DNA of 32,000 nucleotides from Candidatus Saccharimonadota bacterium (GTDB lineage Bacteria > Patescibacteriota > Patescibacteriia > 2-12-FULL-60-25), in the NCBI GenBank assembly GCA_963718585.1, contig OY970357.1, forward strand, positions 750,001-782,000, read 5' to 3'. Numbering within the stretch: position 1 is the stretch's first letter; every line of letters starts with the position of its first letter. Shown here piece after piece: positions 606 to 32,000 of this stretch. Under the pieces are notes generated by a model that was not told where the DNA came from, searched no databases, and saw only the letters and a program-made list of their open reading frames with translations. A program made the position numbers and the translations under genes.

Positions 606-634
606 TTGACATTTTAGCCATTTTTTGGTATGGT
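606..634 (+). promoter_or_regulatory. Sigma70-like promoter for the 690..2344 gene pair
   Basis: TTGACA (606-611), 17-nt spacer, extended -10 TGgTATGGT (626-634). A 7-bp hairpin follows in the leader: ctatcgg-aataag-ccgatag at 645-664. An AGGAG lies 6 nt before the GTG at 690. Confidence 0.45.
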
Positions 635-689
635 GTGTCGTTCTCTATCGGAATAAGCCGATAGGGAGGTTCTTTACAGGAGACATACC

Positions 690-2344: not shown

Positions 2345-2371
2345 CCGATCCGCCACACGCGGAAACACCTC

Positions 2372-2406
2372 GCCCCCCGAAGCGATCGCTTCGGGGGGCT
2401 TTTTTA
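2372..2406. terminator. Bidirectional rho-independent terminator shared by convergent genes
   Basis: gccccccgaagcg / cgcttcggggggc perfect 13-bp stem (2372-2384 and 2387-2399). A T-run (2400-2405) follows on the + strand. It sits between the stop at 2344 (+) and the stop at 2404 (-). Confidence 0.7.
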
Positions 2407-2709
2407 TTCCTTTGGATGGGCGCTGACCTTGATCACTTCCGCCATATCATCTTCCGGCGTCGTCCGATTCCACTTTTCATGCCTGCAGACCGTACATCGA
2501 TGGAGCAGATCGTACCCCTCACGGGTCACGCGGATGGCCACTGGCTCCATCATCCCCCCGCAATCAGACGCCCGGTCTCCCGGTTCCACATCGACATGCT
2601 TACTCCACAGGCAATGCGGACAATGGTTGGTATACCCATTCCCCTTCACGACCACGCCGCAATGAGCGCACGTGAAGTCCTCGATCCGGCGCGTGAATGA
2701 GGTCGACAT
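2404..2709 (-). CDS. RNHCP domain-containing zinc-ribbon-like protein
   Basis: 101 aa. CAHCG...GYTNHCPHCLWSKHVD...CGG...CTVCRHE matches my memory of the RNHCP domain family (Pfam RNHCP). The ATG at 2709 lies 1 nt after the metG stop (TGA-n-ATG). Confidence 0.85.
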   Translation of the reverse strand: MSTSFTRRIEDFTCAHCGVVVKGNGYTNHCPHCLWSKHVDVEPGDRASDCGGMMEPVAIRVTREGYDLLHRCTVCRHEKWNRTTPEDDMAEVIKVSAHPKE

Positions 2710-2710
2710 G

Positions 2711-8463: not shown

Positions 8464-8595
8464 CTGACAATTATTGCCATGGCTCCTTTTTGGATTAAGC
8501 TTCTGTGACTTGAGACAGTCTCGAGATGCAGCGCTCCCTAGTAAAAATGATTTAAGGATGCGCTGCATGGTTCGTACGTACATTTGGAGGTTATC

Positions 8596-10581: not shown

Positions 10582-10659
10582 GGGTGCGTGGTGTAGCCCG
10601 GTTAACACGTCTCCCTGTCACGGAGAAGATCGAGGGTTCGAATCCCTTCGCACCCGCCA
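10582..10659 (+). tRNA. tRNA-Asp (anticodon GTC), CCA encoded
   Basis: Hand-folded cloverleaf. Acceptor GGGTGCG/CGCACCC. D stem GTGT/ACAC. Anticodon stem TCTCC/GGAGA with loop CTGTCAC. 5-nt variable loop. T arm GAGGG-TTCGAAT-CCCTT. Discriminator G, then CCA. 78 nt in total. Confidence 0.95.
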
Positions 10660-10770: not shown

Positions 10771-11718
10771 ATGGTGGTCATGCGATGGCTCCAACCGTAC
10801 CTCCCCGACCTGATCTTCGGGCTGATTTGCGCACTCCTCCTCTGGCTTACGCGCCCCGCGTATCTCGCCTTCACGCGTCGGCGGAGCGGCTTCGGAACCG
10901 TCTTCAACAGCCACACCGGCGCACCCGAGGCGCTTGCGACCGTGACACTCAAAGACCTGCATGGCCAGTCCGTCCGCTCGGCGGTCACGGACAAGCAGGG
11001 ACGCTATCGCATCGTCGCGCCCAAAGGCGACTACATCGTGGACGTGAAGAAGTTCGGCTACGTCTATCCTTCCAAGCTCCTCGGAAAGAGCGCAGCGACG
11101 ACATTGTATGACGACCTCCTGACCGCGCGACACATCATCGTGAATGACGTCGGGGCGATCACGAAGAACATCGCGATCGATCCGCCGGTGACCAAAGGCC
11201 ACGCGCGCGTCGCCGCGAAGTCATTCGTCTTGCCCAAGGTCGTACAAGAGACGCTGTCTCTCCTCGGACCCGCCGGGGCGCTCGCGTATGCATACGTCCA
11301 GGATCGCGCGCTCCCCTGGTCGATCCTCGTCGTGTATCTCGGCGTCATGGTCTCGCGCCTCGCGTCGTTCAAGCCTCCGCGCCCGCCGTTCGGGACGATC
11401 CGCGATGCCGTGAACAAAGGACCGGTCCAGGGCGCGGCCGTCCGCATCATCGACACGAAATTCAATAAGCTCCTCGAGACGCAGATGACATCGCCGAAGG
11501 GACGGTATGCCTTCGTGGTCAAACCCGGCTCGTATCGCATCCTCATCACCAAGCCCGGGTATCACGGTGTGATGATGAACTTCCCGCGCATCCAACAGGA
11601 CGCCTACCTTCTGGCCAAGGATGTGATGCTCAAGCGCGCGACCAAGAAAAAGACGGCTGCACCGGCCGTCACGGAGCTTGAAGCGCATCTACCGCCGGCG
11701 GCGTATCAAGAGGCGTGA
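10771..11718 (+). CDS. Membrane protein with two carboxypeptidase-regulatory-like (prealbumin-fold) domains
   Basis: 315 aa. N-terminal helix LIFGLICALLLWLTRPAYLAF. Domain 1: GTVFNSHTGAPEALATVTLKDLHGQSVRSAVTDKQGRYRIVAPKGDYIVDVKKFGY. Two central helices. Domain 2: GTIRDAVNKGPVQGAAVRIIDTKFNKLLETQMTSPKGRYAFVVKPGSYRILITKPGY. The start could instead be the ATG at 10780. Confidence 0.8.
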   Translation: MVVMRWLQPYLPDLIFGLICALLLWLTRPAYLAFTRRRSGFGTVFNSHTGAPEALATVTLKDLHGQSVRSAVTDKQGRYRIVAPKGDYIVDVKKFGYVYPSKLLGKSAATTLYDDLLTARHIIVNDVGAITKNIAIDPPVTKGHARVAAKSFVLPKVVQETLSLLGPAGALAYAYVQDRALPWSILVVYLGVMVSRLASFKPPRPPFGTIRDAVNKGPVQGAAVRIIDTKFNKLLETQMTSPKGRYAFVVKPGSYRILITKPGYHGVMMNFPRIQQDAYLLAKDVMLKRATKKKTAAPAVTELEAHLPPAAYQEA

Positions 11719-18246: not shown

Positions 18247-18680
18247 AGATCCATGGTATCGACGACCGCCTCCTGCAGCGCGAACATCCGTTCCTCATCC
18301 TTTGCCGTGGCATGGTCATATCCAAAGAGGTGGAGCAGACCATGGACGAACATCCGGACCGTCTCTTCGCGCACGCCGATGGCCCGTCGCTGTGCTTCCG
18401 CACGCACGACCGTCGGAGCGATGACGATATCTCCCCAATGCCGCGGAAGGGATCGCGGCTGTGGCACGGATGGCGTAGAAAACGAGAGGACATCCGTTGG
18501 ACGGTCTTTGCCACGCCACGCCCGATTCAAGCGACGGATCTCCTTCGGGGTGACAAACGCCACATCAATGGTTCCCGTAGGGACACGACGAACTTTCTTG
18601 AATGTGAGGCGGGCGGCGCGAGGAAGATCATTCGGCCGAAGGGGGGCCGGACGGTTTCCACGGACAGACATCGTGATCAT
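18243..18680 (-). CDS. ybeY: rRNA maturation endoribonuclease YbeY
   Basis: 145 aa with the zinc-binding HGLLHLFGYDH motif. ATGA overlap with the upstream gene. Confidence 0.92.
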   Translation of the reverse strand: MITMSVRGNRPAPLRPNDLPRAARLTFKKVRRVPTGTIDVAFVTPKEIRRLNRAWRGKDRPTDVLSFSTPSVPQPRSLPRHWGDIVIAPTVVRAEAQRRAIGVREETVRMFVHGLLHLFGYDHATAKDEERMFALQEAVVDTMDL

Positions 18681-20023
18681 GGCGTCGTTCCGGTCGCCGA
18701 ACCGGTCGTGGTGCTCCCTGATGGGAAGACGGATTCCGGCTGAGCCACGACCCCGGTCGACGTCGCCCCTGGCTCAAAGGGAAGCGGCGTCGAACTTGCG
18801 GTCACATTCACCTGCGGAACACCCGTAAGCACCAGGGAATTCAGCATCATCGAATAGGTGGTGCGGTAATTGATGAATGTCTGTCCATCCATGTCATAGA
18901 CCATGGTGAAGACCTTATCCTCCCAGGGGAGATAGACCGTCAGCGAACCATCGCTGATGATCTCGATCCCCTCATACCCTTTTTTCGTGACGAACTTGAG
19001 GATCTGTGACTTCGGCGTATCCGGATGAGAGGCGAGATACCACTCAAGCACCGCCTGACGCGTCGGATCTTCCTCGATCGTCACATGGAATGTTTCTCCA
19101 TGGCCGGTGTCATAGGTCGCGGAACCGGCATTGCCCTGCGTCACCTTCCAAGACGACGGGACCTGCATGGACCAACCTGCTGGCGAGTTCACGACGGCCA
19201 CAAGCTTCGCCTCTAGGAGCGTCCCTGGGGCGCGGCCATTCGGGTTATAGAGATGGAACACTTCGTTTCCGTCCAAGAACCCATCCGCATCCGTATCCGG
19301 ATTCTGCGGATTCGTCCCGAACAGGGCTTCTTCAAGGTCCGTGAGGCCGTCAGAATCCGTATCCAAGCCCGCGGGCGGCAGCCTCGGCGTCTCTGGCGGT
19401 GGCGGAGGCGGCAACGGCACCGTCGCGCTCGCTACGTTCGATGAGGGAGAATCTCCCCCCTGGTTCACGGCAAAAACACGATATTCATAGGCCGTGCCGG
19501 ATTGGATCGCAGAATCGATGAACGTCGTGCTGTTCGGCGGCAATGCGGAGAGCGCGGAGAACGCCGTACCTCCTGCTGCGGCACGTTCGATGCGATATCC
19601 AGATTCGTTCGACGCGTTGTCCGTCCATCCCAGATTGACGGACTGCGGATTCGTTGAGGTCGCGGTCAAACCCGTCGGGGCGACCGGGGGTTCCGCTGTT
19701 TGCGGCGCAGGAGGCGTCGGTGTCGGCGTTGGTGTCGGAGCTGGTGCCGGCTGCGGGAAGAGCAACGCTTGATTGAAATAGACGAACGCTCCCCCACTAC
19801 CGAGGAGGAGGACCAGTACGATAAGGACGATCGGCAACACCATCGAACGCTTTGGCGGCGGCACGACCCCATTTGATGCTTCCGGCTTGGTCTCTGCCTC
19901 TTTGATATGCGCCTTCAAAGCCGCCCCGTAGAATTTCTCCGGGATGGTATGGATCTCTGGCTCGGCGCCGGGATTTTGTGGGGTGGGTTCGGTCGGGGCC
20001 GAGGTGGGCTTCATTTCAGGCAT
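18677..20023 (-). CDS. Bitopic surface protein: TM anchor, Pro/Thr linker, fibronectin type III domain, TSP3-type calcium-binding repeats, unknown C-terminal domain
   Basis: 448 aa. Anchor MVLPIVLIVLVLLLGSGGAFVYF. FN3: PTGLTATSTNPQSVNLGWTDNASNESGYRIERAAAGG...TAYEYRVFAVNQGGDS. DTDSDGLTDLEEALFGTNPQNPDTDADGFLDGNEV follows the DxDxDG pattern. The C-terminal ~170 aa are paralogous to the next gene. Confidence 0.8.
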   Translation of the reverse strand: MPEMKPTSAPTEPTPQNPGAEPEIHTIPEKFYGAALKAHIKEAETKPEASNGVVPPPKRSMVLPIVLIVLVLLLGSGGAFVYFNQALLFPQPAPAPTPTPTPTPPAPQTAEPPVAPTGLTATSTNPQSVNLGWTDNASNESGYRIERAAAGGTAFSALSALPPNSTTFIDSAIQSGTAYEYRVFAVNQGGDSPSSNVASATVPLPPPPPPETPRLPPAGLDTDSDGLTDLEEALFGTNPQNPDTDADGFLDGNEVFHLYNPNGRAPGTLLEAKLVAVVNSPAGWSMQVPSSWKVTQGNAGSATYDTGHGETFHVTIEEDPTRQAVLEWYLASHPDTPKSQILKFVTKKGYEGIEIISDGSLTVYLPWEDKVFTMVYDMDGQTFINYRTTYSMMLNSLVLTGVPQVNVTASSTPLPFEPGATSTGVVAQPESVFPSGSTTTGSATGTTP

Positions 20024-20027: not shown

Positions 20028-21155
20028 TCAAGGCGCGGCTACGCGGAGAGATTCCGCGATCAGTTCCGTGGACGCTCGGAAGTCATAGGCGGGTGCCCCG
20101 TTCAACTGATACGTGACCACGATGATTGTATCACCAGAGGCCAGATCGTACACGACATCCCCATTTTCATGCCTTGCGGCACGCAGACCGTTCTTCGTGG
20201 TCAGGAACGTCGCGGTCGCCGCATCGGTCCCCAACCACTGCTCCAGTGGCAACTGCGCGGTGTTTGGACGGACTTCCAAGGTCACGGTCGCTGCAGAACC
20301 GGTTTGAATGACCGCTTTCGACGGATCCTGTTGGTCCGCGGACAAGGTCCATGCACTCGGCATGAGGAACGTATGTCCGTTCCAGGACTGAACTTTGACC
20401 CCCGCGTCCTGCGTGATGCTCGCTCCGGCATGGGTCGGATCATACAAACCCGTCACTTCGCTTCCATCTGAATATCCGTCGCCGTCCGTATCCGGGTTCG
20501 TGACCGAAGTTCCATACAGCGCCTCCTCCACATCCGTAAGACCGTCCTGATCTTGATCCGTGCCTTCGATCGGTGCGGGCGGCGGAGGCGCGACCGCTGA
20601 CGGAATTTCTGTGGTATTCGTCGTCGGCTCCGGGATCCCCGGGGGCGGTTGTGTGACCGGCGCGGATGGAGTTGATGGTGCGGTCGGAACAATGGGCGTG
20701 GGTGACGGTGTCGTTGGGACCGTCGGAACGGTCGGCACGGTCGGCGAAGCAGAGGACGTGGTCGGAGACGTGGTCGCGGGTGCACGGACAAGGAAGAACC
20801 AGACAGCGAATCCGACTGCACCGACCAAAATGACCGCCCCAGCAACGAACAAGATGAACTTGAGTTGCGACGGCTTAGATCTCGCTGGCGGCTGCGCAGC
20901 CACTTGAGCACCCTGGGCATCTTCCGCCCCTAACTGAAGCCCGGAGAAGATATCCTCGGGTTCTTTTTTTCCCGTTGTCATTGGAGTCTGCGGAACGGGC
21001 TTCAATCCGCCACCCCGTCCTGCCGGCGCTTGCGGCGGCGTCGGGGCCGTCGGGGCTCCTTGCGGCGAAGAGGGTGCTGAAGGCTGCGAAGCGTTGCCCT
21101 GCCCTGTCGAAGGCGTGGGTTCCACGGGAAGATTGGCGGGTGCGTTGTCGAACAT
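20028..21155 (-). CDS. Bitopic surface protein, paralog of 18677..20023 (TM anchor, Pro/Thr linker, TSP3-type repeats, same C-terminal domain, no FN3)
   Basis: 375 aa. Anchor FILFVAGAVILVGAVGFAVWFFLV. DQDQDGLTDVEEALYGTSVTNPDTDGDGYSDGSEV. The C-terminal domain aligns with the 448-aa protein (MPSAWTL / VPSSWKV; LEQWL / LEWYL; TTKNG / TKKGY). Confidence 0.8.
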   Translation of the reverse strand: MFDNAPANLPVEPTPSTGQGNASQPSAPSSPQGAPTAPTPPQAPAGRGGGLKPVPQTPMTTGKKEPEDIFSGLQLGAEDAQGAQVAAQPPARSKPSQLKFILFVAGAVILVGAVGFAVWFFLVRAPATTSPTTSSASPTVPTVPTVPTTPSPTPIVPTAPSTPSAPVTQPPPGIPEPTTNTTEIPSAVAPPPPAPIEGTDQDQDGLTDVEEALYGTSVTNPDTDGDGYSDGSEVTGLYDPTHAGASITQDAGVKVQSWNGHTFLMPSAWTLSADQQDPSKAVIQTGSAATVTLEVRPNTAQLPLEQWLGTDAATATFLTTKNGLRAARHENGDVVYDLASGDTIIVVTYQLNGAPAYDFRASTELIAESLRVAAP

Positions 21156-21167: not shown

Positions 21168-21500
21168 TTAGGGGGTGGTTGAGGTCGGACGGAAGCCGCG
21201 ATGAGCATCTGCTTCCTGCGCCGCTTGGATCTGCTCTGGCGTCCATGTCGATTGGTAATCTGCCGGAAACTGTCCGGCGTTCTGCTTCTGCAGATCCCGT
21301 GCTGCTTGGATATCCGGCGTGATGTCATAGACAGACGTTGCTGAAGACGGTCCCCTGTTGGAGGCGGATGGGGCCGATGGTGAGCTCACGAGCGGGACCA
21401 ACGGCGTACCCGCGCGCCCCCGAAGAACGATGACCACGACGAACACGATGACGATGAACACCATGCTTCCGAGAATGATCCAAAGGACGCGTCGATTCAT
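21168..21500 (-). CDS. Small N-terminally anchored hypothetical protein
   Basis: 110 aa. MNRRVLWIILGSMVFIVIVFVVVIVLRG anchor, S/P linker, then a short polar domain. The ATG lies 6 nt after the giant gene stop. No family recognised. Confidence 0.6.
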   Translation of the reverse strand: MNRRVLWIILGSMVFIVIVFVVVIVLRGRAGTPLVPLVSSPSAPSASNRGPSSATSVYDITPDIQAARDLQKQNAGQFPADYQSTWTPEQIQAAQEADAHRGFRPTSTTP

Positions 21501-21506: not shown

Positions 21507-24500
21507 TTACCAGTCATAGATACCATACTGTGTCTGCTGCGTCTTCGGGACGCACGTATTCAAGATATTGACCTGACCCGTCTCCCCGTTCTGCTGGAAC
21601 GGGATCCATGTGTGGTCATAACACGACGGCGTGAAGGACTGATGGCTGGTGAATGTCACGAGCTGGACCCGGAGTGACATGTCTTGGTAGTCCTTCAGAC
21701 TCCACGCTGACTTGAGGTCATTCAACCCGACCGTGAGATCGCCACTGAAATAGGGCGGAGAATATTTCAAGACTTCCGGCGCGGTCGTGAGGTGCGTACA
21801 CACATCACAGGAATCTCCCGAGTGATAGCAATATGCACGCGCATGCGGGAGCTTGGTCAGATCACGGAGACCGTTATGGTTCCAGAACACTTCCCCGAGA
21901 CACCCATTCCCAATGACCTGACCTCCCGTGCAGTCGCTGTACGAATAGACCTGATCAGAATCGATCGGCGGACCAGCAACATTCGAATTGGTCGGCTTCT
22001 TCACACAATAGGTGTCATAGCTCTTATCCTGATCGTAATTCGTCGGGCTCGCATAATCCGGGTTCACGTCTGTATGGAATTGACCGTATGCGACCTTTTT
22101 TCCATTTGCATCGGTGTATATCGGGAAACCAAGGTGAACATTGATGTCATTCCCTTGAAGATCTCCGTTCCACGTCACGACAACCAGGCTCTCATTCTTT
22201 GCGACGCGTGGCAGGAGGTAGATATATCCATCCGAATTCTTGATCCCCTGTGAGTGAAAAGTAGTGACCGTAAACGCATCACTCGTGTATGGCCAATACC
22301 CGCCATTGAGAGATTCATCCACATTCCCGACGAAGTTGTTCCATGTCGTCCCATCACAGGATGGACGGTCTCCATTGTTGTCCACGGCGGTACACGTATT
22401 ATCCTGATACATGTCGACCACGATCTTATAGCTGTTACAGGCCGGATTCGTGTTCAGCGTGGAGAACGTGAATACGCCGTCATTGTCCGTATACGTCTCG
22501 TCGACTTTGACGCCCTTCGAGAGGAGGGTGACGCGTGCGCCCGGAACTGGCTGATTCGCGTACACGGCATCATGGATCTTACCCGTGATCACACCCTTGC
22601 CCGGGACATCGCTACACTTCGCGCAATTCTGGAATCCGCATCCGGCACTGCAGGCGACGATATCTGCGGACGTATCGACCGAGACCCCGTACTGCGGTCC
22701 TTTTTCATACACACACTTCCAGAAATCATTCGCAGACGGAAGCGGGTCTGCAAATGAAAGCTTGCTCTCAGCGCCTAGGCCCGGCTGGCCCGTGACCTGA
22801 CAGGTCATCCCAAGACAATCACGGTACATCGCATATTGGTACCATGTGAGCGCCTGATACGGTGCACAATTGTAACCAGCCGAATAAAACTGTGTCCGCT
22901 GATCCTCCGCCTGGATCGCCGCCTCCGTCTGCGGCGTCTTCGGACCCACGATCTCCGGATACAATCCGTTGATCGAATAGTCATAGCCGAGCTTGGTACA
23001 CGAGATGCCGGGTTCGGATGTTTGCACACAGGGGCTTTGCGTGCAGTTCGACTGGACCGCCACTGCGACGCCAGCCGGCGCACCGGACGGGACCGGGTTC
23101 GTCGAATGGATCACGCTCAAGCACTTCGCTCCAGCGCCACACTCCGCGTCCGACGCACAGGGCTGACCTTTTTTCGCACCCGAGGAACAAAACGTCCCCG
23201 CTGGCTGATTCCCATCACACTGCTCCGGTCCTTCCTTGATCCCGTTTCCGCAGTACCCACCGGCACTCGCGAGGAATTTACAGGACGTCGAGCAGGAAAG
23301 ACAGCTGGAATTGTAATCAGCGGAACACGTCACCTTCCCGTTGTCCGCACCCGCGTCACATTCTTCGACACCGATATTCACCTTCCCATCGCCGCAAATA
23401 TTCTTCTTACACGACGTCGTACAGGCCTTCGTGTCCCCATTATCCTTCCCGTTGTCACATTCCTCTCCCGAATCCTGGACCCCATCGCCACAGATCCCCT
23501 TTGCGACACACCCGCTCCAACCCGTCCCACTCCCGGCCCATTTACACGCATTCGTCGTTCCCGGCGCATTACATGTCCGGACATGGTGCGTATCTCGTGT
23601 GATCCCACCCACGACCACAGTCACTCCGACGCATGAATTGGTCGTGCCCGTCCCGCCGCACTTGGCATTGCTCCCCCCACAGTCCGCATCCGTCGTACAT
23701 GGCTGACCGAGATTCGAACCCGCGGAACAGATCGCGCCATCGTTCGCCTGTGTATTTCCGTCACATTCTTCCGGCGGGCTGATGAGTCCATCGCCGCAAT
23801 AAGGTCCCGGGCCTTTGCAATCCAAACTGCACGAGCCGGCGTACTTGCCGTTGAAATCGGTCTTTGTCTGATCATTGCCCACATCGCACACCTCACCTGG
23901 ACTCAACTTTCCATCTCCGCAAAAACCGGAATACCCGTTACATGACGTATTGCAGTGTCCATATGTGCCATTCAACGCTCCATCATCGCACGTCTCCGCC
24001 TTCTGACAGGTCTCACCAGATGCGCAGTCTCCGTCCGTCAAACAGCCGAGCTTGGAACCGCTGCACTGCTTATCCACGCGGGCATTCCCGCAATGCACAT
24101 CCGGAATACAATCCGGGTGCTGGGGATCATCCGAGAACGACTGACATGCGTTGCACGTCTGCTGGCGATGCCCGGGCTCTCCATTCACGGTCGTGCATTG
24201 GACGTTCTGCGTCTGACCGATCTCGCAGACCTCGCCCGCATTCAGCACTCCGTCACCACAGATCCCCGCTTCGGCATACGTTCCAGATTTACAGATGTTC
24301 GTGTAGTTGAACGTTCCGCCGAACTGACGACAGGATCCGGAGACCACCGGAATGTTCTGACACGATCCAGACGTCCCGCCGCAATCCGCATCTGATGAAC
24401 AGAAGGTCGGACTATTCTTGCACTGTTTACAGACATTCGGATTGGGACACGGCCGGCACAAGGCATCATCCCCCGTCCCGTTCGCTCCGGCGCAGAACTG

Positions 24501-27500
24501 ACCATAGGTGGACGGCGTCACACACCGATACACACCGTTCGGGAGAGGTGGCGCCCACCAATTCGCGGTCGGATCCGCCGGATTCGGCGGCGGGATCTCA
24601 TATTCCGCACCGAGCGAATACTGCGTCCCTGCGGCGAGAGACCTGTACTGATAGAACCGCGAAACGCCGGTCTGTTGATTCCCGATCTTCGGACAGATGA
24701 ATTGCTTGTCCGTCGTGTTCCAGCATGTCTGCGGATCGATATGGTCATCGAATGTCCAGGTCCCGGAAACGTCCTTCCCACCACGACAGGTCTGAGCCTG
24801 ACCATTGTAGCTCGGACAATCGCTGTTTTGTGCACAAGGTTGTTGTGACTGGTCACACCGACCGCACGTCAGGAATCGATTCACCGGATCCGTAGGCAAC
24901 TGAGCGCTCAATGCCTTCCCGAGCTCCTGTGACCACGATGGCCAGTTCGACGTCGAAAGACCGGTCAGGTACGTCCCCGCCTTTGCCTGCGGATACAGAC
25001 TCTGTCCATCTTTCCCGTTCTCAAGATCCTTAGCCACTTCCTGGAAATCCGCGATGCGCAATGAATCACGCGTGAGCTTGAGCTTCACGCTGTCACACGA
25101 GCTCTCCGGGTCATAGGCGAGACACTGCCAATCTGCCTCACAGTGGATGTACTTCTGTGTTGCCGGATCCAGGATCGGCACGCCGTTCTTGCGGCACGAA
25201 TTGCTCTGATCCGTGAACTCCTTATTGATATTGAAGACCAAGCTCTGGACCATCTGATCGTAGATCCCTTGCGTGGTCTCCTGTGCATCCGGATTCCGCG
25301 AGATGATGTAGATATTGGAATAGATCGGCCCTTGGTTGCCCTGCGGACGATTGGCCGCCGCAACGTACACTGTGGAACCGTCTTTCAAAGCGGGATACCC
25401 GTCCACCGTGATCGATTCCGGGCTGCCGGAGAAACCGCGTGCGCGATACCACTCAAGCGGCGACAGATGTTGGAAGTTGCTCATGATGCGCACCCCGATC
25501 CCATCCTGTTTCAGTTCCGGATGATCCGCCCCGTAGACGAAGAGATACTGGCGCAAGATGCCGTTGGCGATGTCGATCCCGGACAACGGGACCATCGTGA
25601 TCTGAAGTTGCGGAAGATCGTCGCTCGGATCGTGCGGCGCGCCGGCGTCACGGCAATAGAAGGTCGAGAAGTTGAAATACTTCGATGACTGCGTGCTGTA
25701 GAACTCGCTCCCCGGCGGGATGTTGGGCGAATTGAGAAGGTCTCGGAACGGTGAGGTGTTGAGCGTCGGCCACGGATTCTCACAGACCTGGACCTCGACA
25801 TCCGCGATCCCCGCGATGGCCTGGCCCACGGTCGACGGGACGCTGACCGTGTCGGTCGTGACCTCCAACGTCGCGGTCAGGATGGCATGGCCGTTCTTTT
25901 GCGCGGACTCAAAGATGGCCGACGCCCCCTGGTCCTGCGTGGCGTCCACGACGCTCGGTTCGCTCGAGGTCCATGCATCCCACTTCCACGAATACCCCGC
26001 GACCGGGGACAGCGGCACGGCTTGGTTGTTCTGGATAGATTGCGCGGCAGCGGCAAACGTCCGATCTTCCGGTTGGTTGTTCGCGTTCACGAAGAGATAC
26101 GGATGATGCTCCGGATCCTGATCGGTGACCGTGACGTCGTTGATCGCACACACCTGCCCGCCGGTCGTAAAGACCCACTCAAGATCCCCGCTCTGCCCGG
26201 TCTCCAGCGCATGGACCACGCCATAACTCGTCTTGACCCCGAGCTTTTGCGGGATCGATTGATTGTCCGTCAGATCCGGATCACCAAGGAAGCGGACGCG
26301 GTAGGTCGTATTCGGATCGAACGCTTGATCGAGTTTGTACGTGAAGGTCTTGGTCCCGCTCGGCGTCGTGACCGGTGTCAGCTGACCCGTGACCTTCCCT
26401 TTGCACCACTTCTCGGCGTACACCGGCTGTCCCTGGAGCCACGCGAGGATCTTATGCCAGACCGAACGGATCCAGGCGAGGACGCCGGTCCCCTGATCGT
26501 CGGCGCGGACCAATATCTCCTGCGTCCCCGGCGGACACACGTTGTTCACCGAGGGCTGGGAGACCTCAAAACTTCCGATCGTCGCCCCCGTGTCCATGGG
26601 CACGTTGAACGTGGCGGAGATCAATGCATTCCGACACACGCCAGACCCGGACGGATAATTCCCGACCAGTTTCGGACGTTCACGGCAGCACCCATTCGCA
26701 TCCAATCCAAGACCTGCCGGACACTGGGTCTCATCCGTATAACCACATTGCAAACCATACGATGCATCCCCCTGCGTCCCCTGCATGGTCGCGGAGAGCG
26801 TGCTGGAGGCGATCCCGGTCTGTTGATCCGGTACGGCCGTGGAGGCGATATATGCCAGCTGTGTCCGGTCGACGATCTTGTCCCCTTTCTGAGCAAGCGG
26901 ATCCAACAACAGATACGCGGCCTTAAGCGCGGACCCTAACGGCGGAGGCGAGGCGTCATAATGCGCGGCATGCGCAAGATCGTTCGATGGGATCCCCTGC
27001 TCGCATTGCTCCCCCTTCTCAAGGATCCCATTCCCGCAAAAACTGGGTTGCATCTTCCCGCTCGTGTCCGTGTAGTACGCACTCGATCCTTCGAGGAGAC
27101 AAGAGGCACTGCATCCGTCACCGCTGATGCTATTCCCATCATCGCAATCCTCTCCCCGATCGATCGCATTGTTCCCACAACATGCTGTGGTCTGGCCCGG
27201 CGCACACGCGACCGTTCCGGTATGCAGACAGGTGGTCGGATCGCATCCGGGCGGGAATGGCGTATTCAGACTCGGCCGCTCACAGGTCTCACCCGGTTCC
27301 AGGATCGCATTTCCACAGACACCGGCGACCACGCTGGAAGGCGCCGAACCTTCGTGCAGACAGATCGCAGAACAGCCGTCGCCATTCGTGATGTTCCCAT
27401 CGTCACAATCTTTCCCATCTCCCAGCGGATCATTGTTCCCGCACGTCGATTTGCCGGCCGGCGCTCCCAAATGACGACAGGAGGAAGAACATCCGCGATA

Positions 27501-30500
27501 ATCATGCATCGCGCATGTACCACCGGCATTCGTACACGCAGCGCGCGCGGCATCCGTCAGACAGGATGTCCCATCCGAGACCGGGGTCGTGGTGGTCGCA
27601 TTTCCACCTCCGAGACAGGTCGGACCAAAGTCACAGGCCTCCCCCTGATCTTTTTGGACGATGCCATCGCCACACGTTCCCCCAAGTCCGTAGGCCGGCA
27701 CGGGTTTATACAAACAGGTCGTCGCATCGCAGACGGTCCCGTCCAATCCGGGTTCGCACTCCTCCCCCGCTTTGGCGCCAGCCGCAAAAAGCTGACATGG
27801 CTTGCCCGTCGGGGTCTTGCCATTGACGCAGAAATCCTTGTCCGTGGTCTCGATCACGCCATTGCCACAGACCGCGACTTTGCCGAACAGACCGCTTGCC
27901 CCGGTCGCAAGACACCTTCCGCTGCAACCCTGCGGCAGCGTTCCGCCCGTATCCACGAGCTCCCCGCCGATCCGATAGAAATCCGCGGTCTGCGCATCGG
28001 ACGTCGCCCAGGTCGTATTACTCGGCACGAGCATCTGCCCGTCCGTGCTGCACACGTCACCTTTGGTGAACGGCGTTGCCGTGAAGAGCTGACGACCATC
28101 GATCCGCGTTTCCACTTTTTTGGCTGGCGAGATGTCCACACGCTCCGGCGTACACGTCGCCGTCGGTCCGGTCAGGACACGGAAGATCCAAACGTACCCC
28201 TGTGGATGATTGAGAGATGCCATCGGCACGCCATTGTCTCCTTTCAGACCATTCGGTACAGCCGGCCCGCCCTTGAGGAGTACCCGATAGAACGCCCCCG
28301 GCTCCAAGGACGATGACGGTGTGATGGAGATGAACCGATCCGTATCGTTCGTCGTCCCCGGCGGCGTGGACAGTTCGACTTTCGCGGAAAGTCCCGGCTG
28401 ACTCAACGGCGGGCTCAACTCGGACTCGAAACAGTTCTCGTTATGACATTTCCGCAGCTCGACATTCCCCGGCGTCAGGACGCTCGTGGGATCCAATGCC
28501 GCAGAGAAACGTGCCCAGATCAACGCGTTGGAACAGGCAGAATCACAATTCGGTCCGTATTGCTCGATGGTCGGCGGGATGAAGTGGATCGACAGCTTCC
28601 CGGTCCCCACAAGCGGCGCGGGCTGGTTCTGCAATTGCACATTCATGTTCACGGGCGCAGCGCCGGTCTCCGCGAGCCCGGTCCCGATCTGTTTGCAATC
28701 GACATGTCCATCCGAATCCTCATCCGCATTCGAAAGGTCCGCACGCGGATCTGACTGCCCCGGGGCACCGGTATACCAGCTCCAATCGTACTGATGACAA
28801 TCAAGGATGATACACGCGTCATTCGCGTACGTCGGCTCCGCAAGATACGGCGTGGTCTCCCCGGATTTGGACATTTCATACATCGACGGAATGAGCGTCA
28901 CGGACCCGATGTTCGCCGTATCCGCGCTATCCCGTGTCTTGAACCGATAACAATACCCATAGGTCTCCCCATTCGGCCCGGTCCCGCACGCGGTCACGGG
29001 CTCCATGTTCGCGCCACCAGCCCCGGCCGCCTTCACATCCGTCGAGACCGTGACGAGATAGGTCGTCCCCGTCGCAAAGGTCTTTCCGCCGTAATGTCCC
29101 AACGTCACGACATCCTGCTCCGGGGTCTCATGGATCAAAAGCGGATCATTGAACGCGGAAGAAACATCTTCGGTCGTCGCACACGGATCATTGCCCGTAT
29201 CCGTACATTTCGACACGTGGAATGCGGAACGGACCACCGTCGATGGATCAAGCGGACGGCTGAACCGCATCTTCAGATCCGCCTCGATCGGCGCTTGATC
29301 ACCACCAGCCCGTCCGAGCCAGGGAGACGGAGACGGGGTGACCGGCGGCTGCGACTGCGGTGCGCACTCCTCCACCACCCGCGGCGCGATCGGGATCAAT
29401 CCCGTGGACATCTGCCACGCGTATTGCGCGGACAGGGGCGCCGTTCCACATGCCTGCCCCACAGCGCGACATTCACCGGTCGGACAACACTGGAACTGAC
29501 TTGGCGGTCCGCAGATGTCCGGCGCTTCGTTGCAGTTCCGTACCGTAAAATCCACAGCGTTCGATGTCTGCCCGCCGGTCTTCACGGTCACGGGTCCGGT
29601 GACGGCTCCGTTCGGGACGGCCGTATCGACCTCGTTGTTCGTGTTGGAGAGGACGTTCGCAAGCGTATTCAAGGAAAAACTCACCGTGGGCGGCGTCAGA
29701 CCGAAGCGGTCCCCGTACAATTTGACCGCGGTCCCGACCGGACCCGAGACCGGATCGATGCCACAGATCCCCGGTTTCGGCGTTCCCGTCGTGATCGTGA
29801 ATGTCAGACTGTTCGACACTGCGCCATCCGCACGCTTGACCTTCACGTGGTAGGAGCCGGTCGGCGTCTGCGCGTTGTTGGGGAAGGTGCTCGGCGCCTT
29901 GATCACGATGGATGCATCCCGCCAGAAACTCGCGGCATTGCAGACCGGTGGGAAATTCGTATCTCCGATCGCATCCACGCCGCTCTGATCGTTGGTGAAG
30001 ACCACGGTCCCGAGATCATATCCGAAATTACTGCCCGACAAGGTCAGATATTCTTGCTGCGGCCCCTGCCCCGGATCGATGGATGTCAGGACCGGTGCCG
30101 CGCCGTAGGTCTTATTGAGCACCGTGTACGTTGCCGGATTGGAGATGCCGGCGGTCGTCGTGACATAGACCGGGTAGTTCCCCGCATCGACGACTGGAAC
30201 ATGGATACGGACGTCGGTGTCCGTCCAACTCGGGAATGAGGAAAGCACGCGGCTCAAACTCCCGAAGTACACACTCGATGGCGCCGTCCCGAACCCACTT
30301 CCAATGACGTCTGCCTCATCATTCACATACCCAGACGACGGTTTGATCCCGCAAACACCTGGATGGGCCACGTCATTCGCAAGGAAATCCGCGAGGTGCG
30401 GACCATCCGTATCATCCGTCCGATCGGTCAACGTTGAACTCGCATTCCGGATCTGGATCGGCCCTGATGCCGCTCCATCCGGAACGGCGACGATGGCCTG

Positions 30501-31958
30501 GGTCGCACTCCACGTAGACAGACCGGCCGCCGTACAGACCGAGGGAGGTGCCGCGACACGATCGTCATTCGGATCCGCCGGATCACCGAGGAAGGTCACG
30601 GTCCCAGGCGTGTCACCGAAGTTCACGCCGAGCAGGGTCACGAACGTCCCCGGGCGTCCATTGTTCGGACTCATCTGCGTGATGATCGGTTTGACGACGC
30701 AGACATTGCTCTGACAGAAACCGGAAGAACACTGACTGTTCGTGGAACACGTCCCACCGGTACACGCGCCGCAATACTCCGCACTCGATGGATCTCCACC
30801 ACAATCGATCCCGGTCTCGCCCTTATCCGCATCCAGCTTTTGGTTGAAACAGTGTTCTGCACGGACCACGACGTTCACGCCCGCGCTCTGTGTGACATTC
30901 GTATCCAGATCCGATGCGCTGGCGGTCAATGTGTGGGTCCCCAACGTGACACCGGCCGTATTCCAAAGGAGATGCGCCGTGAACGGGGTAAACGGAGGAC
31001 CCGCAGGTGCATCCATCCCGATCTGGGTGTTGCCATCCGCAGTCCCCTCGACCGTTGAGATCCCACTGTCATCGGTCGCATCCGCGTAGACGTCCTGCGT
31101 CAAACTGTTCACCGGCACAGACATCCCGTCTGTCGGGAACGTGACGCTCACCTGCGGCGGCTGCGTGTCAACGAGATCCCCCGTATGGAAATCCACCGTG
31201 CATGCTAAGGCGAATCCGCCGCACGTGACCGTCTGACCGCCGCTTGATTTGAGGGTCTTTGCGACCGTGACCGTGAAATCCGCATTGGCATCAAAACATT
31301 TCCGCGTCTGATTCGGTGCCGGACAATCTGCGGACGGGGTGAATGTCGCGAGACTCCCGCTCACGTCGACCGTTCCCCCCACGGGTGCGCCTCCTTCGGT
31401 CACGGTGATCGCGCCAGCGCTGGACGGATCGATGGCTTTGCTCAGCAGGATCTTTACCTGCACGTTCCGCAACGGAACATCCCCCTGCGGGGTGATGGAT
31501 TGGATGACAAAGACCTGACCCGGAGAACCGCCGCTGAATCCGCCGGTATACCCAGGACCCGTACCGCCGGTGACCGTTCCGCCGCTGGTCGTGGCCTGCA
31601 AGAGACGATCGATGACGAATCGCGCAATAGCCCAGGACGAAAGGATGATGATGAGTCCGATGATCGCATTACGAATGATCGCTTTGGCCTTTGTCGTCTT
31701 TTCCGCTTCCCCGCCCGAGGTCATGTACAGGAACCCGGCGTACAAGATGAGGACCACCATGATGATGGCCAGGAGCCCGAGCGCGACATTGATGAGATTC
31801 GCCGCGATGACACGCGGATCATTGTTCGGAAGCTTGATCGTCTGACCCACGGCGTTCAGCCCGGTATCGACCTGCGCATGGACCGGCGCAATGAGAAAGG
31901 CACCGGCGCCCGCGAGCGACAGACTGATCGTCAGGACAGTTAGCAGGCGACGGATCAT
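21507..31958 (-). CDS. Giant (~3,483 aa) cysteine-rich multidomain surface protein with an N-terminal T4SS-pilin-like membrane module
   Basis: One uninterrupted ORF of about 10.45 kb. The track starts at a TTG at 31982; the ATG at 31958 (MIRRLLTVL) is preferred. Recognisable protein-like modules run throughout (see sub-features and findings). All long ORFs on the opposite strand are Arg-rich shadows. Confidence 0.9.
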   Translation of the reverse strand: MIRRLLTVLTISLSLAGAGAFLIAPVHAQVDTGLNAVGQTIKLPNNDPRVIAANLINVALGLLAIIMVVLILYAGFLYMTSGGEAEKTTKAKAIIRNAIIGLIIILSSWAIARFVIDRLLQATTSGGTVTGGTGPGYTGGFSGGSPGQVFVIQSITPQGDVPLRNVQVKILLSKAIDPSSAGAITVTEGGAPVGGTVDVSGSLATFTPSADCPAPNQTRKCFDANADFTVTVAKTLKSSGGQTVTCGGFALACTVDFHTGDLVDTQPPQVSVTFPTDGMSVPVNSLTQDVYADATDDSGISTVEGTADGNTQIGMDAPAGPPFTPFTAHLLWNTAGVTLGTHTLTASASDLDTNVTQSAGVNVVVRAEHCFNQKLDADKGETGIDCGGDPSSAEYCGACTGGTCSTNSQCSSGFCQSNVCVVKPIITQMSPNNGRPGTFVTLLGVNFGDTPGTVTFLGDPADPNDDRVAAPPSVCTAAGLSTWSATQAIVAVPDGAASGPIQIRNASSTLTDRTDDTDGPHLADFLANDVAHPGVCGIKPSSGYVNDEADVIGSGFGTAPSSVYFGSLSRVLSSFPSWTDTDVRIHVPVVDAGNYPVYVTTTAGISNPATYTVLNKTYGAAPVLTSIDPGQGPQQEYLTLSGSNFGYDLGTVVFTNDQSGVDAIGDTNFPPVCNAASFWRDASIVIKAPSTFPNNAQTPTGSYHVKVKRADGAVSNSLTFTITTGTPKPGICGIDPVSGPVGTAVKLYGDRFGLTPPTVSFSLNTLANVLSNTNNEVDTAVPNGAVTGPVTVKTGGQTSNAVDFTVRNCNEAPDICGPPSQFQCCPTGECRAVGQACGTAPLSAQYAWQMSTGLIPIAPRVVEECAPQSQPPVTPSPSPWLGRAGGDQAPIEADLKMRFSRPLDPSTVVRSAFHVSKCTDTGNDPCATTEDVSSAFNDPLLIHETPEQDVVTLGHYGGKTFATGTTYLVTVSTDVKAAGAGGANMEPVTACGTGPNGETYGYCYRFKTRDSADTANIGSVTLIPSMYEMSKSGETTPYLAEPTYANDACIILDCHQYDWSWYTGAPGQSDPRADLSNADEDSDGHVDCKQIGTGLAETGAAPVNMNVQLQNQPAPLVGTGKLSIHFIPPTIEQYGPNCDSACSNALIWARFSAALDPTSVLTPGNVELRKCHNENCFESELSPPLSQPGLSAKVELSTPPGTTNDTDRFISITPSSSLEPGAFYRVLLKGGPAVPNGLKGDNGVPMASLNHPQGYVWIFRVLTGPTATCTPERVDISPAKKVETRIDGRQLFTATPFTKGDVCSTDGQMLVPSNTTWATSDAQTADFYRIGGELVDTGGTLPQGCSGRCLATGASGLFGKVAVCGNGVIETTDKDFCVNGKTPTGKPCQLFAAGAKAGEECEPGLDGTVCDATTCLYKPVPAYGLGGTCGDGIVQKDQGEACDFGPTCLGGGNATTTTPVSDGTSCLTDAARAACTNAGGTCAMHDYRGCSSSCRHLGAPAGKSTCGNNDPLGDGKDCDDGNITNGDGCSAICLHEGSAPSSVVAGVCGNAILEPGETCERPSLNTPFPPGCDPTTCLHTGTVACAPGQTTACCGNNAIDRGEDCDDGNSISGDGCSASCLLEGSSAYYTDTSGKMQPSFCGNGILEKGEQCEQGIPSNDLAHAAHYDASPPPLGSALKAAYLLLDPLAQKGDKIVDRTQLAYIASTAVPDQQTGIASSTLSATMQGTQGDASYGLQCGYTDETQCPAGLGLDANGCCRERPKLVGNYPSGSGVCRNALISATFNVPMDTGATIGSFEVSQPSVNNVCPPGTQEILVRADDQGTGVLAWIRSVWHKILAWLQGQPVYAEKWCKGKVTGQLTPVTTPSGTKTFTYKLDQAFDPNTTYRVRFLGDPDLTDNQSIPQKLGVKTSYGVVHALETGQSGDLEWVFTTGGQVCAINDVTVTDQDPEHHPYLFVNANNQPEDRTFAAAAQSIQNNQAVPLSPVAGYSWKWDAWTSSEPSVVDATQDQGASAIFESAQKNGHAILTATLEVTTDTVSVPSTVGQAIAGIADVEVQVCENPWPTLNTSPFRDLLNSPNIPPGSEFYSTQSSKYFNFSTFYCRDAGAPHDPSDDLPQLQITMVPLSGIDIANGILRQYLFVYGADHPELKQDGIGVRIMSNFQHLSPLEWYRARGFSGSPESITVDGYPALKDGSTVYVAAANRPQGNQGPIYSNIYIISRNPDAQETTQGIYDQMVQSLVFNINKEFTDQSNSCRKNGVPILDPATQKYIHCEADWQCLAYDPESSCDSVKLKLTRDSLRIADFQEVAKDLENGKDGQSLYPQAKAGTYLTGLSTSNWPSWSQELGKALSAQLPTDPVNRFLTCGRCDQSQQPCAQNSDCPSYNGQAQTCRGGKDVSGTWTFDDHIDPQTCWNTTDKQFICPKIGNQQTGVSRFYQYRSLAAGTQYSLGAEYEIPPPNPADPTANWWAPPLPNGVYRCVTPSTYGQFCAGANGTGDDALCRPCPNPNVCKQCKNSPTFCSSDADCGGTSGSCQNIPVVSGSCRQFGGTFNYTNICKSGTYAEAGICGDGVLNAGEVCEIGQTQNVQCTTVNGEPGHRQQTCNACQSFSDDPQHPDCIPDVHCGNARVDKQCSGSKLGCLTDGDCASGETCQKAETCDDGALNGTYGHCNTSCNGYSGFCGDGKLSPGEVCDVGNDQTKTDFNGKYAGSCSLDCKGPGPYCGDGLISPPEECDGNTQANDGAICSAGSNLGQPCTTDADCGGSNAKCGGTGTTNSCVGVTVVVGGITRDTHHVRTCNAPGTTNACKWAGSGTGWSGCVAKGICGDGVQDSGEECDNGKDNGDTKACTTSCKKNICGDGKVNIGVEECDAGADNGKVTCSADYNSSCLSCSTSCKFLASAGGYCGNGIKEGPEQCDGNQPAGTFCSSGAKKGQPCASDAECGAGAKCLSVIHSTNPVPSGAPAGVAVAVQSNCTQSPCVQTSEPGISCTKLGYDYSINGLYPEIVGPKTPQTEAAIQAEDQRTQFYSAGYNCAPYQALTWYQYAMYRDCLGMTCQVTGQPGLGAESKLSFADPLPSANDFWKCVYEKGPQYGVSVDTSADIVACSAGCGFQNCAKCSDVPGKGVITGKIHDAVYANQPVPGARVTLLSKGVKVDETYTDNDGVFTFSTLNTNPACNSYKIVVDMYQDNTCTAVDNNGDRPSCDGTTWNNFVGNVDESLNGGYWPYTSDAFTVTTFHSQGIKNSDGYIYLLPRVAKNESLVVVTWNGDLQGNDINVHLGFPIYTDANGKKVAYGQFHTDVNPDYASPTNYDQDKSYDTYCVKKPTNSNVAGPPIDSDQVYSYSDCTGGQVIGNGCLGEVFWNHNGLRDLTKLPHARAYCYHSGDSCDVCTHLTTAPEVLKYSPPYFSGDLTVGLNDLKSAWSLKDYQDMSLRVQLVTFTSHQSFTPSCYDHTWIPFQQNGETGQVNILNTCVPKTQQTQYGIYDW
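23115..24866 (-). repeat. Cys-rich repeat array 2 (seven CG[DN]G-type modules plus C-x-[ST]-D-x-[DE]-C knots, aa ~2373-2956)
   Basis: CGDGVLNAGEVCE, CGNARVDKQC, CGDGKLSPGEVCD, CGDGLISPPEECDGN, CGDGVQDSGEECDNG, CGDGKVNIGVEECDAG, CGNGIKEGPEQCDGN. Interleaved with QPCTTDADCGGSNAKC, QPCASDAECGAGAKC and FCSSDADCGGTSGSC. Confidence 0.7.
26988..27872 (-). repeat. Cys-rich repeat array 1 (six CG[DN]G-type modules, aa ~1371-1665)
   Basis: CGNGVIE, CGDGIVQKDQGEACD, CGNNDPLGDGKDCDDGNITNGDGCSAICLHEG, CGNAILEPGETCE, CGNNAIDRGEDCDDGNSISGDGCSASCLLEG, CGNGILEKGEQCE. This resembles the Myxococcus cysteine-rich repeat (DUF4215 / TIGR02232) as I remember it. Confidence 0.7.
29538..30692 (-). repeat. Four tandem IPT/TIG Ig-like domains (aa ~431-815 of the giant protein)
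   Basis: Each unit opens P-x-I/C-x-I/M-x-P-x-x-G and carries a G-x-x-F-G core: ITQMSPNNGRPGTFVTLLGVNFG; CGIKPSSGYVNDEADVIGSGFG; LTSIDPGQGPQQEYLTLSGSNFG; CGIDPVSGPVGTAVKLYGDRFG. Confidence 0.75.
31599..31958 (-). other. Signal peptide plus two-helix VirB2/TrbC-type 'T4SS pilin'-like module of the giant protein
   Basis: MIRRLLTVLTISLSLAGAGAFLIAPVHA | QVD..., then RVIAANLINVALGLLAIIMVVLILYAGFLYMTSGGEAEKTTKAKAIIRNAIIGLIIILSSWAIARFVIDRLL. The helix / MTSGG-x-EK-x2-KAK loop / helix layout matches my memory of the small CPR pilin family (Pfam T4SS_pilin, related to TrbC/VirB2). No HMM was run. Confidence 0.65.
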
Positions 31959-32000
31959 GGCGTTTGGAGAATGGTCTGACAATCCGCGGACGTGGGCGAA

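Follow-up and report, generated by a model that had tools for sequence, protein, structure and literature searches.

The question raised by this locus is what kind of protein is encoded by a single minus-strand open reading frame (ORF) that fills a third of the window, by which we mean the whole stretch of 32,000 nucleotides analyzed (contig OY970357.1, positions 750,001 to 782,000, from assembly GCA_963718585.1 of a Candidatus Saccharimonadota bacterium). Patescibacteria, also called the candidate phyla radiation (CPR), have genomes of ~1 Mb or less, and all of their cultivated members live attached to other cells (PMC11623550). The giant gene discussed here, at 21507-31958, would take up ~1% of such a ~1-Mb genome. 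Judging from its sequence, it belongs as an orthologue to a very large Patescibacteria family, conserved yet uncharacterised, and it is not unusual within that lineage. We propose that its product is, on balance, probably a long fibre that is rooted in the membrane, stapled by disulfides and topped by an exchangeable tip; such a fibre would serve for contact with, or adhesion to, a cell or surface. Coordinates refer to the window, and residue numbers (aa) are counted from the ATG at 31958.

A giant gene conserved across Patescibacteria

The ORF can be read from a TTG, in which case it spans 21507..31982 and encodes 3,491 aa without a stop, or from the ATG at 31958, which gives a coding sequence of 3,483 aa in a single unbroken frame. 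We consider the ATG to be the likelier start, because the starts of the orthologues, which open with M-(K/R)-R at the equivalent position, align with it and because it overlaps, as ATGA, with the TGA of an upstream ORF in another frame. The same 4-nt junction between this upstream gene (hereafter the partner gene) and the giant gene was found in 22 related loci. The first-pass annotation of the window, a reading of the letters without database searches, had reported an uninterrupted frame of ~10.45 kb and a product of ~3,483 aa, and both hold with the ATG at 31958; the translation is free of stops, and the chance of 3,491 stop-free codons at 59% GC is ~1e-52. Repeat-driven mis-assembly was rejected, since there are no long DNA repeats within the gene; near-identical protein repeats were also absent by self-BLAST.

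Relatives were collected by scanning an N-terminal alignment against one genome per prokaryotic species. This gave at least 573 tblastn-confirmed stretches, some of which are paralogues of the partner; the best 80 loci were retained. Complete and uninterrupted orthologous ORFs of 2,935-3,859 aa were found in 39 loci, with their modules in the order seen in the window, namely hairpin, immunoglobulin-like (Ig) domains, Cys knot, four TIG domains, Big_5-like units, Cys array, signature module and Cys array; in two further loci the ORF exceeds 4,300 aa before the contig ends. Because 39 independent genomes hold these collinear ORFs, an assembly chimera is excluded, and the giant ORF is a real feature, neither a one-off nor a chimera. 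The first-pass annotation had pointed to related genomes as the place to look for orthologues and conserved neighbours, and both were found there, the gene neighbourhood being fixed (see below). The closest orthologues (L048, L005 and L006) share ~53% identity over ~93% of the window protein. Within its clade, the giant gene seems to be nearly universal and to occur as a single copy.

By record title, the best 80 loci come from Uhrbacteria, Falkowbacteria, Magasanikbacteria, Komeilibacteria, Paceibacter and many unclassified Patescibacteria. A search with aa 1-1330 returned Patescibacteria proteins with the same N-terminus (PF18895, Big_5, Big_7 and TIG), several of them labelled Candidatus Uhrbacteria and most of them truncated by contig ends; in the databases the relatives are named 'IPT/TIG domain-containing protein', 'Ig-like domain-containing protein' or 'hypothetical'. 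The earlier view of a reduced, host-dependent organism fits these results, as the close relatives are all Patescibacteria, especially Candidatus Uhrbacteria-type metagenome-assembled genomes. Some records with the Patescibacteria-type cassette and synteny have titles from outside the CPR, namely L052 (Candidatus Kapaibacterium sp.), P0001 (Bacteroidota bacterium) and many loci titled 'uncultured Gammaproteobacteria', which stem from one bulk submission; these labels probably reflect mis-binning or generic titles.

With a HMMER profile built from three sequences of aa 1900-2500, we obtained 1,632 cluster representatives (50% identity) at E<=1e-3, 1,196 of them at E<=1e-30; most of these proteins are 3,000-4,600 aa long and have the module at about residues 1,800-2,600. 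A word-indexed search found just two relatives of the middle module and one of the C-terminus (P0064), which for the middle module is an artefact of sensitivity. Full-text literature searches found no description of this protein architecture, in agreement with the first-pass remark that the domain combination was not a described system.

The most conserved 50-aa windows among the 39 orthologues are aa 51-100, which lies in the hairpin (mean identity 54%), and aa 2151-2200 (53%). Identity is 30-54% up to ~aa 2900, with most of the stalk at 20-50%, and the region beyond ~aa 2950 shows 5-30%, the start of the CarboxypepD_reg domain (the aa 3101-3150 window) being an exception in this variable region at 30%. 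Of the 166 Cys, 111 are kept in at least 80% of the orthologues. We read this conservation as purifying selection, and it argues for structural disulfides; it also fits the published enrichment of CPR genomes in an MdbA-like oxidoreductase and VKOR for extracytoplasmic disulfides (PMC6744442).

In ~9-10 of 59 otherwise complete relatives (L001, L003, L040, L043, L044, L050, L054, L057 and L060), two ORFs take the place of the single giant gene, which sequencing error, gene fission or phase variation could explain. Three of these relatives, L040, L043 and L057, all break at ~aa 2260. In L001 the gene is called as 1,584 + 2,033 aa; given that the tblastn alignment shifts frame at ~nt 14650, we regard it as a frameshifted or mis-sequenced orthologue of ~3,600 aa.

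From a pilin-like root to a variable tip

The mature protein has ~3,455 aa, a mass of ~362 kDa and a pI of 4.6, with Cys making up 4.8% of its residues, and its parts are listed in Table 1. Profile searches reproduced almost all of the order read in the first pass, that is, a signal peptide with a pilin-like two-helix module and a Gly-rich linker, Big_5-like Ig domains, a Cys knot followed by four IPT/TIG domains, two Cys-rich arrays, and a CarboxypepD_reg domain before a Cys-containing C-terminus without a family. Among the further Big_5-like units, the one near aa 1860-1900 passes the cut-off, and those at aa 820-1330 are weak and fall below threshold when scanned one by one. The middle module, which the first pass had listed as unknown, has no Pfam family and measures ~400 aa.

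The root matches T4SS_pilin (PF18895) at aa 51-115 with 34.9 bits in the whole protein and 40.8 bits in aa 1-150, the cut-off being 26.6. A second pilin-like model, NF045849 of NCBIfam, gave 33.4 bits, under its cut-off of 40, and a profile of the N-terminus had no significant match among PDB sequences, no PDB pilin being detectable. The layout of a signal peptide and two helices, at ~aa 5, 50 and 95, is the same in ~30 homologues, and A28 and Q29 at the predicted cleavage site are invariant among aligned relatives. The short loop between the hairpin helices has four K/R against two E. Based on this positive charge, the positive-inside rule and the known topology of VirB2 would place the loop in the cytoplasm and both hairpin ends outside, so that the ~3,360-residue C-terminal part should be extracytoplasmic.

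A motif and hydropathy check agreed with the first-pass statement that there is no C-terminal sorting signal and that the N-terminal module is the sole membrane attachment: an LPXTG tail is absent (the sole LPSAN, at aa 3073, has no tail), and the C-terminus (...QYGIYDW) is polar, not hydrophobic. The class of sortase-anchored LPXTG adhesins was rejected on these defining C-terminal features. The class of repeats-in-toxin (RTX) giant adhesins that use a type I secretion system (T1SS) was also rejected, because the protein, which has an N-terminal Sec signal, contains no GGxGxD motif.

In the stalk, all eight Cys of the knot are invariant or almost so in the alignment of relatives. Two of the TIG units match domain D of CGTase in the PDB (E=1e-5); the four units pass the Pfam cut-off only when scanned singly, and scans of the whole protein and of a 450-aa segment missed them. 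The two Cys-rich arrays are built of TIGR02232 repeats (60.6 bits against a cut-off of 20.8, in three stretches) and DUF4215 repeats (34 bits against 27 in array 1, and a sub-threshold 19.9 bits in array 2), with ten copies of the CG[DN]G..GE.C[DE] motif across both.

For the signature module between the arrays, a 35-sequence profile matched nothing among PDB sequences even at E<=10, and a Pfam scan of its members returned merely small Cys-knot noise; one of the 35 members matches T2SSG (E=0.055). The second half of the module bears a helix motif, RDxxRxxD...L..Y...G.YP, that characterises the alpha1-C helix in type IV pilins, and hhalign of the 35-sequence profile against three type IV pilins encoded in the CPR loci collected here gave 86.7% probability, over 28 columns only. 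We take a possible relation of aa ~2290-2480 to the type IV pilin head as a lead. In its longer form, the motif reads RDxxRxxDF....LE.....G.YP ... LP.DP.N.F (~aa 2290-2500; 24459-25100, minus strand) and lies inside a VirB2-anchored protein. A low-confidence AlphaFold2 model of aa 1900-2500 has a long helix followed by strands, and a Foldseek search of the PDB with the low-confidence model of the middle module gave a best E no better than 0.13.

Among 40 proteins, the C-terminal 280 aa sort into at least 12 tip classes that are unrelated to one another. The tip of the window protein groups with those of L013, L014, L016, L018, L034 and L067, whereas its five closest core relatives share a different tip type. 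This disagreement between tip class and core relatedness shows that the tip is modular and has been replaced during evolution. The tip class of the window protein, which P0064 shares, has a conserved Cys/His cluster (C.RDIYW..G..DL..PHA.LYC.H...C), which might bind metal. A profile of the tip had a lone marginal match to a C2H2 protein in the PDB (E=1.3e-3), probably by chance. A target of a diversity-generating retroelement was rejected, as nothing in the window pairs as a repeat with the 3' end of the gene and no reverse transcriptase is present among the window ORFs scanned.

Table 1. Parts of the giant protein and other features of the window. Fractions of loci are tblastn matches among 84 related loci.
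Feature	Residues (aa)	Coordinates	Strand	Evidence and remarks
Giant protein, complete coding sequence	1-3483	21507..31958	-	stop codon 21507-21509; orthologous complete ORFs in 39 genomes
Signal peptide	1-28	31875..31958	-	hydrophobic aa 4-24; predicted signal peptidase I site between AHA and Q
VirB2/TrbC-like pilin module	29-120	31599..31874	-	conserved DPR segment; TM1 (first transmembrane helix) ~48-75; basic loop TSGGEAEKTTKAKAIIRN; TM2 ~93-118
Gly-rich linker	121-151	31506..31598	-	read from sequence
Big_5 Ig-like domain	152-243	31230..31505	-	PF13205, 55.3 bits
Big_7 Ig-like domain	268-346	30921..31157	-	PF17957, 29.9-33.2 bits; PDB 9kvu Ig domain, E=0.007
Eight-Cys knot	368-422	30693..30857	-	HCFN...ETGIDCGG...CGAC...C...C.SG.C....CV; no Pfam family
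Four IPT/TIG domains	424-515, 533-616, 622-725, 729-811	29526..30689	-	PF01833, 26.4, 21.5, 28.1 and 21.3 bits; cut-off 20.9
Cys-containing linker and weak Big_5-like units	812-1330	27969..29525	-	Big_5 E=2e-6 in two stretches, whole segment; 71/84 loci
Cys-rich array 1	1331-1680	26919..27968	-	TIGR02232/DUF4215 repeats; four CG[DN]x..GE.C[DE] motifs
Conserved region	1681-2090	25689..26918	-	Big_5 unit at ~aa 1859-1900, 27.9 bits, passes cut-off; 66/84 loci
Family signature module	2091-2500	24459..25688	-	without Pfam or PDB relative; 57/84 loci
Cys-rich array 2	2501-3000	22959..24458	-	six CGDG..GE.C[DE] motifs; 50/84 loci
CarboxypepD_reg-like beta-sandwich	3124-3181	22416..22589	-	PF13620, 32.8 bits against 32.3; 19/84 loci
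Variable C-terminal tip	3200-3483	21510..22361	-	Cys-containing; no Pfam family; 9/84 loci
Partner gene, 3' end (cut at window edge)		31955..32000	-	TGA overlaps giant ATG (ATGA); other frame, ends ...DCQTILQTP and stop
110-aa ORF		21168-21500	-	low-complexity, single-pass membrane; between giant and TSP3 genes
Two paralogous bitopic TSP3 membrane proteins		18677-20023 (448 aa), 20028-21155 (375 aa)	-	33% identity over 210 aa
CarboxypepD_reg membrane protein		10771-11718	+	315 aa; two domains
tRNA-Asp		10582-10659
Secreted M23 peptidase		8584-10416	+	610 aa
FecR-domain protein		4233-6275	-	680 aa
Charged protein		983-2344	+	453 aa; no Pfam family

A proposed fibre for cell contact

In our proposal, the product of the giant ORF is a genuine cell-surface protein that a Patescibacteria (Uhrbacteria-like) bacterium has inherited vertically. 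It would be exported by Sec and then cleaved by signal peptidase I after AHA (aa 28). The VirB2/TrbC-like two-helix hairpin would insert into the membrane in the orientation given above, and ~3,360 residues (~360 kDa, pI 4.6) would project from the cell. Arranged in series, this part would consist of Big_5, Big_7, four IPT/TIG and Big_5-like domains, the two Cys-rich arrays and the family-specific ~400-aa module, and the 166 Cys could give up to 83 disulfides. At the end of the array would stand the lineage-variable tip, made of the CarboxypepD_reg sandwich and the ~280-aa Cys-containing domain. The protein would be co-produced with its paralogous partner from the translationally coupled upstream gene, and the near-identical hairpins of the two probably pack together in the membrane. 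The outcome would be a long, rigid, oxidation-stabilised fibre, whose conserved stalk would give reach and whose exchangeable tip would give specificity; fully extended, it may be on the order of 100 nm long, as estimated from ~3.5-4 nm per ~100-aa domain. The analysis establishes the ORF, its domains, the predicted pattern of hydrophobic helices with the loop charge, the family, the synteny, the pattern of conservation and the modular tip, whereas topology, surface exposure, disulfide bonding, hairpin-hairpin association and adhesive function are our inferences. A similar role, host attachment, has been proposed for giant membrane proteins of the CPR predator Vampirococcus (PMC8080830).

Because the module order, the partner and the chromosomal position are conserved while the tip is swapped between lineages, the giant protein is a concrete, widely distributed candidate for the host-contact apparatus of Patescibacteria. 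Its family holds a ~400-aa module that occurs in more than 1,600 protein clusters and has neither a Pfam family nor a solved structure, and it would represent a reuse of the conjugative-pilin fold as the membrane root of a giant ectodomain.

Several points weigh against an adhesive fibre of this kind. Of the domains identified in the giant protein, none has a demonstrated ligand, the signature module and the tip having no Pfam or PDB relative. AlphaFold2 runs on alignments of two to three sequences gave unusable models, with pLDDT (predicted local distance difference test) values of 33.3 for aa 3000-3483 and 41.4 for aa 1900-2500. The conservation of the hairpin exceeds what an anchor alone would require, which points to a possible role in assembly beyond that of an anchor. 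In addition, a core envelope component would account for the strict housekeeping neighbourhood of the gene, its apparent single copy and its near-universality no less well than would a factor for host specificity.

The partner gene and the shared hairpin

The partner gene lies directly upstream of the giant gene in all 75 related loci with enough upstream sequence. It encodes a protein of ~650 aa (~600-900 aa across the loci, and 546-884 aa at the four read in detail), with a VirB2-like module followed by Big_5. The hairpins of the giant and partner proteins have one consensus, YaGFlWMTagG..ek..kAk..i.nA.IGL.IiLss.aI, and their mean identity is 57% between giant and partner of the same genome, as against 52% between giants and 48% between giant and partner across genomes. 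This closer similarity within genomes would result either from functional co-evolution, with the hairpins packing together, or from gene conversion between neighbours. As the best-conserved part of the protein, the hairpin is probably more than a passive anchor. In L001, an extra stand-alone VirB2-like pilin of 167 aa (9491-9994 of that locus), 51% identical to the window hairpin, lies between the partner and the giant gene, and L022 has a similar 136-codon ORF. Some genomes thus have a pilin array of three genes.

Both termini of conjugative pilins lie on the exterior of the pilus, so that a C-terminal fusion is topologically allowed. It is possible, though unlikely in our view, that the giant and partner hairpins (plus small pilins, if present) are extracted from the membrane and polymerised, with or without a Patescibacterial type IV secretion system (T4SS), and that the giant protein is a tip or minor subunit, serving as the adhesin of a conjugation-derived contact organelle. 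This would agree with the PF18895 match over cut-off, with the rank of the hairpin as the most conserved 50-aa window, with the consensus that giant and partner share more closely within than across genomes, and with the stand-alone pilin of L001. Tandem VirB2-like arrays have also been reported in Patescibacteria, where no PrgB-like adhesin was found (PMC12102498). However, none of the T4SS genes (VirB4, VirB6 or coupling protein) occurs within 10 kb of the giant gene in four annotated relatives (L001-L004) or, in the window, in the 21.5 kb that follow it. A pilin extension of ~3,360 aa is without precedent and would block homopolymerisation, gene conversion of adjacent paralogues can equally yield the hairpin similarity within genomes, and, as noted above, sequence searches detect no PDB pilin.

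In a more specific form of this idea, giant and partner would be pilin-type subunits of one conserved organelle, and their near-identical hairpins would co-assemble, possibly through a chromosomal Patescibacterial T4SS, into a filament or base that is rooted in the membrane and displays the ~360-kDa adhesin, stapled by disulfides, with its exchangeable tip. We consider this rather doubtful. If it is true, this would supply the adhesin that is 'missing' from the T4SS-like apparatus of Patescibacteria, and also a lineage-wide host-contact device encoded beside division genes.

Chromosomal setting

Downstream of the giant gene, on the same strand and with gaps of a few bases, lie the 110-aa ORF, the two TSP3 proteins, YbeY, diacylglycerol kinase, FtsA, FtsZ, NrdR, an HtrA-type protease and pyruvate kinase. 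The gene order around the giant gene is identical in the four loci L001-L004, one of which is a 1.02-Mb contig: signal peptidase S26 and HisRS; S21 and/or YqeY; the partner; the giant gene; TSP3 and fn3-type genes; and YbeY, DagK, FtsA, FtsZ, NrdR and HtrA. The context is one of chromosomal housekeeping and not of a mobile element. Each TSP3 protein has a cytoplasmic N-terminal tail, one transmembrane segment, a Pro/Thr-rich stalk, a TSP3-type Ca-binding motif and an unannotated C-terminal domain of ~150 aa, and the longer one also has fn3. Genes of the TSP3/fn3 type come after the giant gene in 42 of the 43 relatives whose downstream sequence is long enough, and they may therefore be part of the giant-protein system.

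This setting raises the possibility that the giant protein is a core envelope scaffold, such as an S-layer-like coat, a tether that spans the wall or a scaffold associated with division, and not a host-binding factor. The strict gene order beside ybeY-dagK-ftsA-ftsZ holds across distant lineages, the gene is near-universal in its clade, and bitopic TSP3/fn3 membrane proteins are co-conserved downstream, all of which argue for such a scaffold. Big_5 domains, which the giant protein contains, are moreover typical of S-layer proteins such as SbsA. However, a lattice protein with a purely structural role would not usually have its tip swapped among at least 12 unrelated types, 362 kDa and 4.8% Cys are atypical of S-layer proteins, and Pfam scans of the giant protein found no SLH, LysM or similar self-assembly or wall-binding domain. 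A scaffold seems rather unlikely to us. If the giant protein is merely a structural envelope component, it would still be a core, undescribed part of the CPR cell surface.

Delivery in the manner of a polymorphic toxin, with a conserved stalk, an exchangeable C-terminal effector and the 110-aa ORF as immunity protein, is highly improbable. It would be in keeping with the variable, modular C-terminus and with the adjoining 110-aa ORF, for which tblastn gave a match in none of the 84 related loci. However, the scans revealed no domain of a toxin, of a pre-toxin (VENN, PT-HINT) or of the Rhs/CdiA type, aa 3190-3483 has no Pfam family, and the tip contains Cys and is predicted to be rich in beta structure, in the manner of an extracellular binding domain; the 110-aa ORF is itself a low-complexity single-pass membrane protein, and in most relatives a TSP3 gene directly follows the giant gene. 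An artefact, be it an assembly chimera or a decaying pseudogene that is by luck still open, could draw on the split genes of ~9-10 of 59 relatives but is effectively refuted by the complete collinear ORFs of similar size in 39 independent assemblies, the 111 conserved Cys, the ~1e-52 chance of such an open frame and the absence of internal DNA repeats.

Other genes of the window

The rest of the window holds genes for MetRS, an EVE-domain protein, a FecR-domain surface protein, an M23 peptidase and a double CarboxypepD_reg membrane protein, together with tRNA-Asp. The FecR-domain protein has an N-terminal transmembrane helix and Ig-like C-terminal repeats. In the secreted M23 peptidase we found three tandem repeats of ~124 aa with a WNDVGQWGW motif, the DNA repeat recurring at 372-nt spacing (9884/10256). 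The tRNA gene is located just upstream of the CarboxypepD_reg membrane protein, whose two domains have the same fold as the one near the C-terminus of the giant protein. The charged protein near the start of the window is rich in Glu, Lys, Ala and Pro and has a transmembrane helix near its C-terminus.

Comparison with known systems

Giant adhesins with Ig repeats are known as an RTX type (LapA, SiiE and MpIBP) and a Gram-positive LPXTG type (Ebh). With both, the giant protein shares a giant serial beta-sandwich stalk, an anchor at one end, a distal binding region and an acidic pI, and by analogy it would work like them, yet it lies outside the RTX and LPXTG classes. It has no RTX repeats, T1SS signal or LPXTG. 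Their repeats are near-identical tandem copies, whereas its domains are divergent according to self-BLAST; and while their repeats are rigidified by Ca2+, the giant protein would rely on many disulfides, with an N-terminal transmembrane hairpin as its anchor.

In its root, the giant protein resembles VirB2/TrbC-type pilins (PF18895, PF04956) and the VirB2-like arrays of Patescibacteria (PMC12102498). A cleavable signal peptide, two hydrophobic helices and a short basic loop are common to all of them, and the arrays consist of tandem paralogues with the same module, as does the pair of giant and partner. However, known VirB2/TrbC pilins have ~70-120 aa when mature, whereas the module of the giant protein carries an ectodomain of ~3,360 aa, and the linkage to T4SS genes that marks such pilins was seen neither in the window nor within 10 kb in L001-L004. 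That report treats the VirB2-like proteins as small pilins, and giant fusions are not described in the passages searched.

Together with these VirB2-like arrays, the nearest parallels in concept are the giant proteins of Vampirococcus lugosii (PMC8080830). The latter, from another CPR bacterium, have 1,392-4,163 aa and a predicted membrane location; a fibrous surface and host attachment were proposed for them, a function that is likewise an inferred one. They are reported to carry WD40, PKD, DUF11, integrin and saposin domains, which sets them apart, and the passages searched do not describe the architecture found here. The giant genes of Omnitrophota (bioRxiv 10.1101/2023.11.21.568195) are also very large, belong to small-celled, putatively predatory or host-associated bacteria and have conserved neighbours; however, they are far larger, are preceded by a secretion locus resembling type II secretion and type IV pilus systems, are linked to cell-wall degradation and have no VirB2-like anchor.

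The Cys-rich acidic repeat proteins of myxobacteria (TIGR02232; DUF4215) have the same repeat, CG[DN]G..GE.C[DE].G....DGC...C, as the two arrays, but in the giant protein this repeat is a mere building block of ~25% of the length. PrgB-type adhesins and the Pam pili of CPR (bioRxiv 10.64898/2026.03.03.709456) resemble it in their proposed function in cell-cell contact, in their occurrence in monoderm or CPR cells and in their Ig-like folds. According to their descriptions, PrgB is anchored by LPXTG and Pam pilins are small subunits joined by donor-strand exchange, which distinguishes both from the giant protein. Giant surface proteins are already known as a kind, and what would be new here is a giant surface fibre that is rooted by a conjugative-pilin hairpin and has an obligatory partner and a swappable tip.

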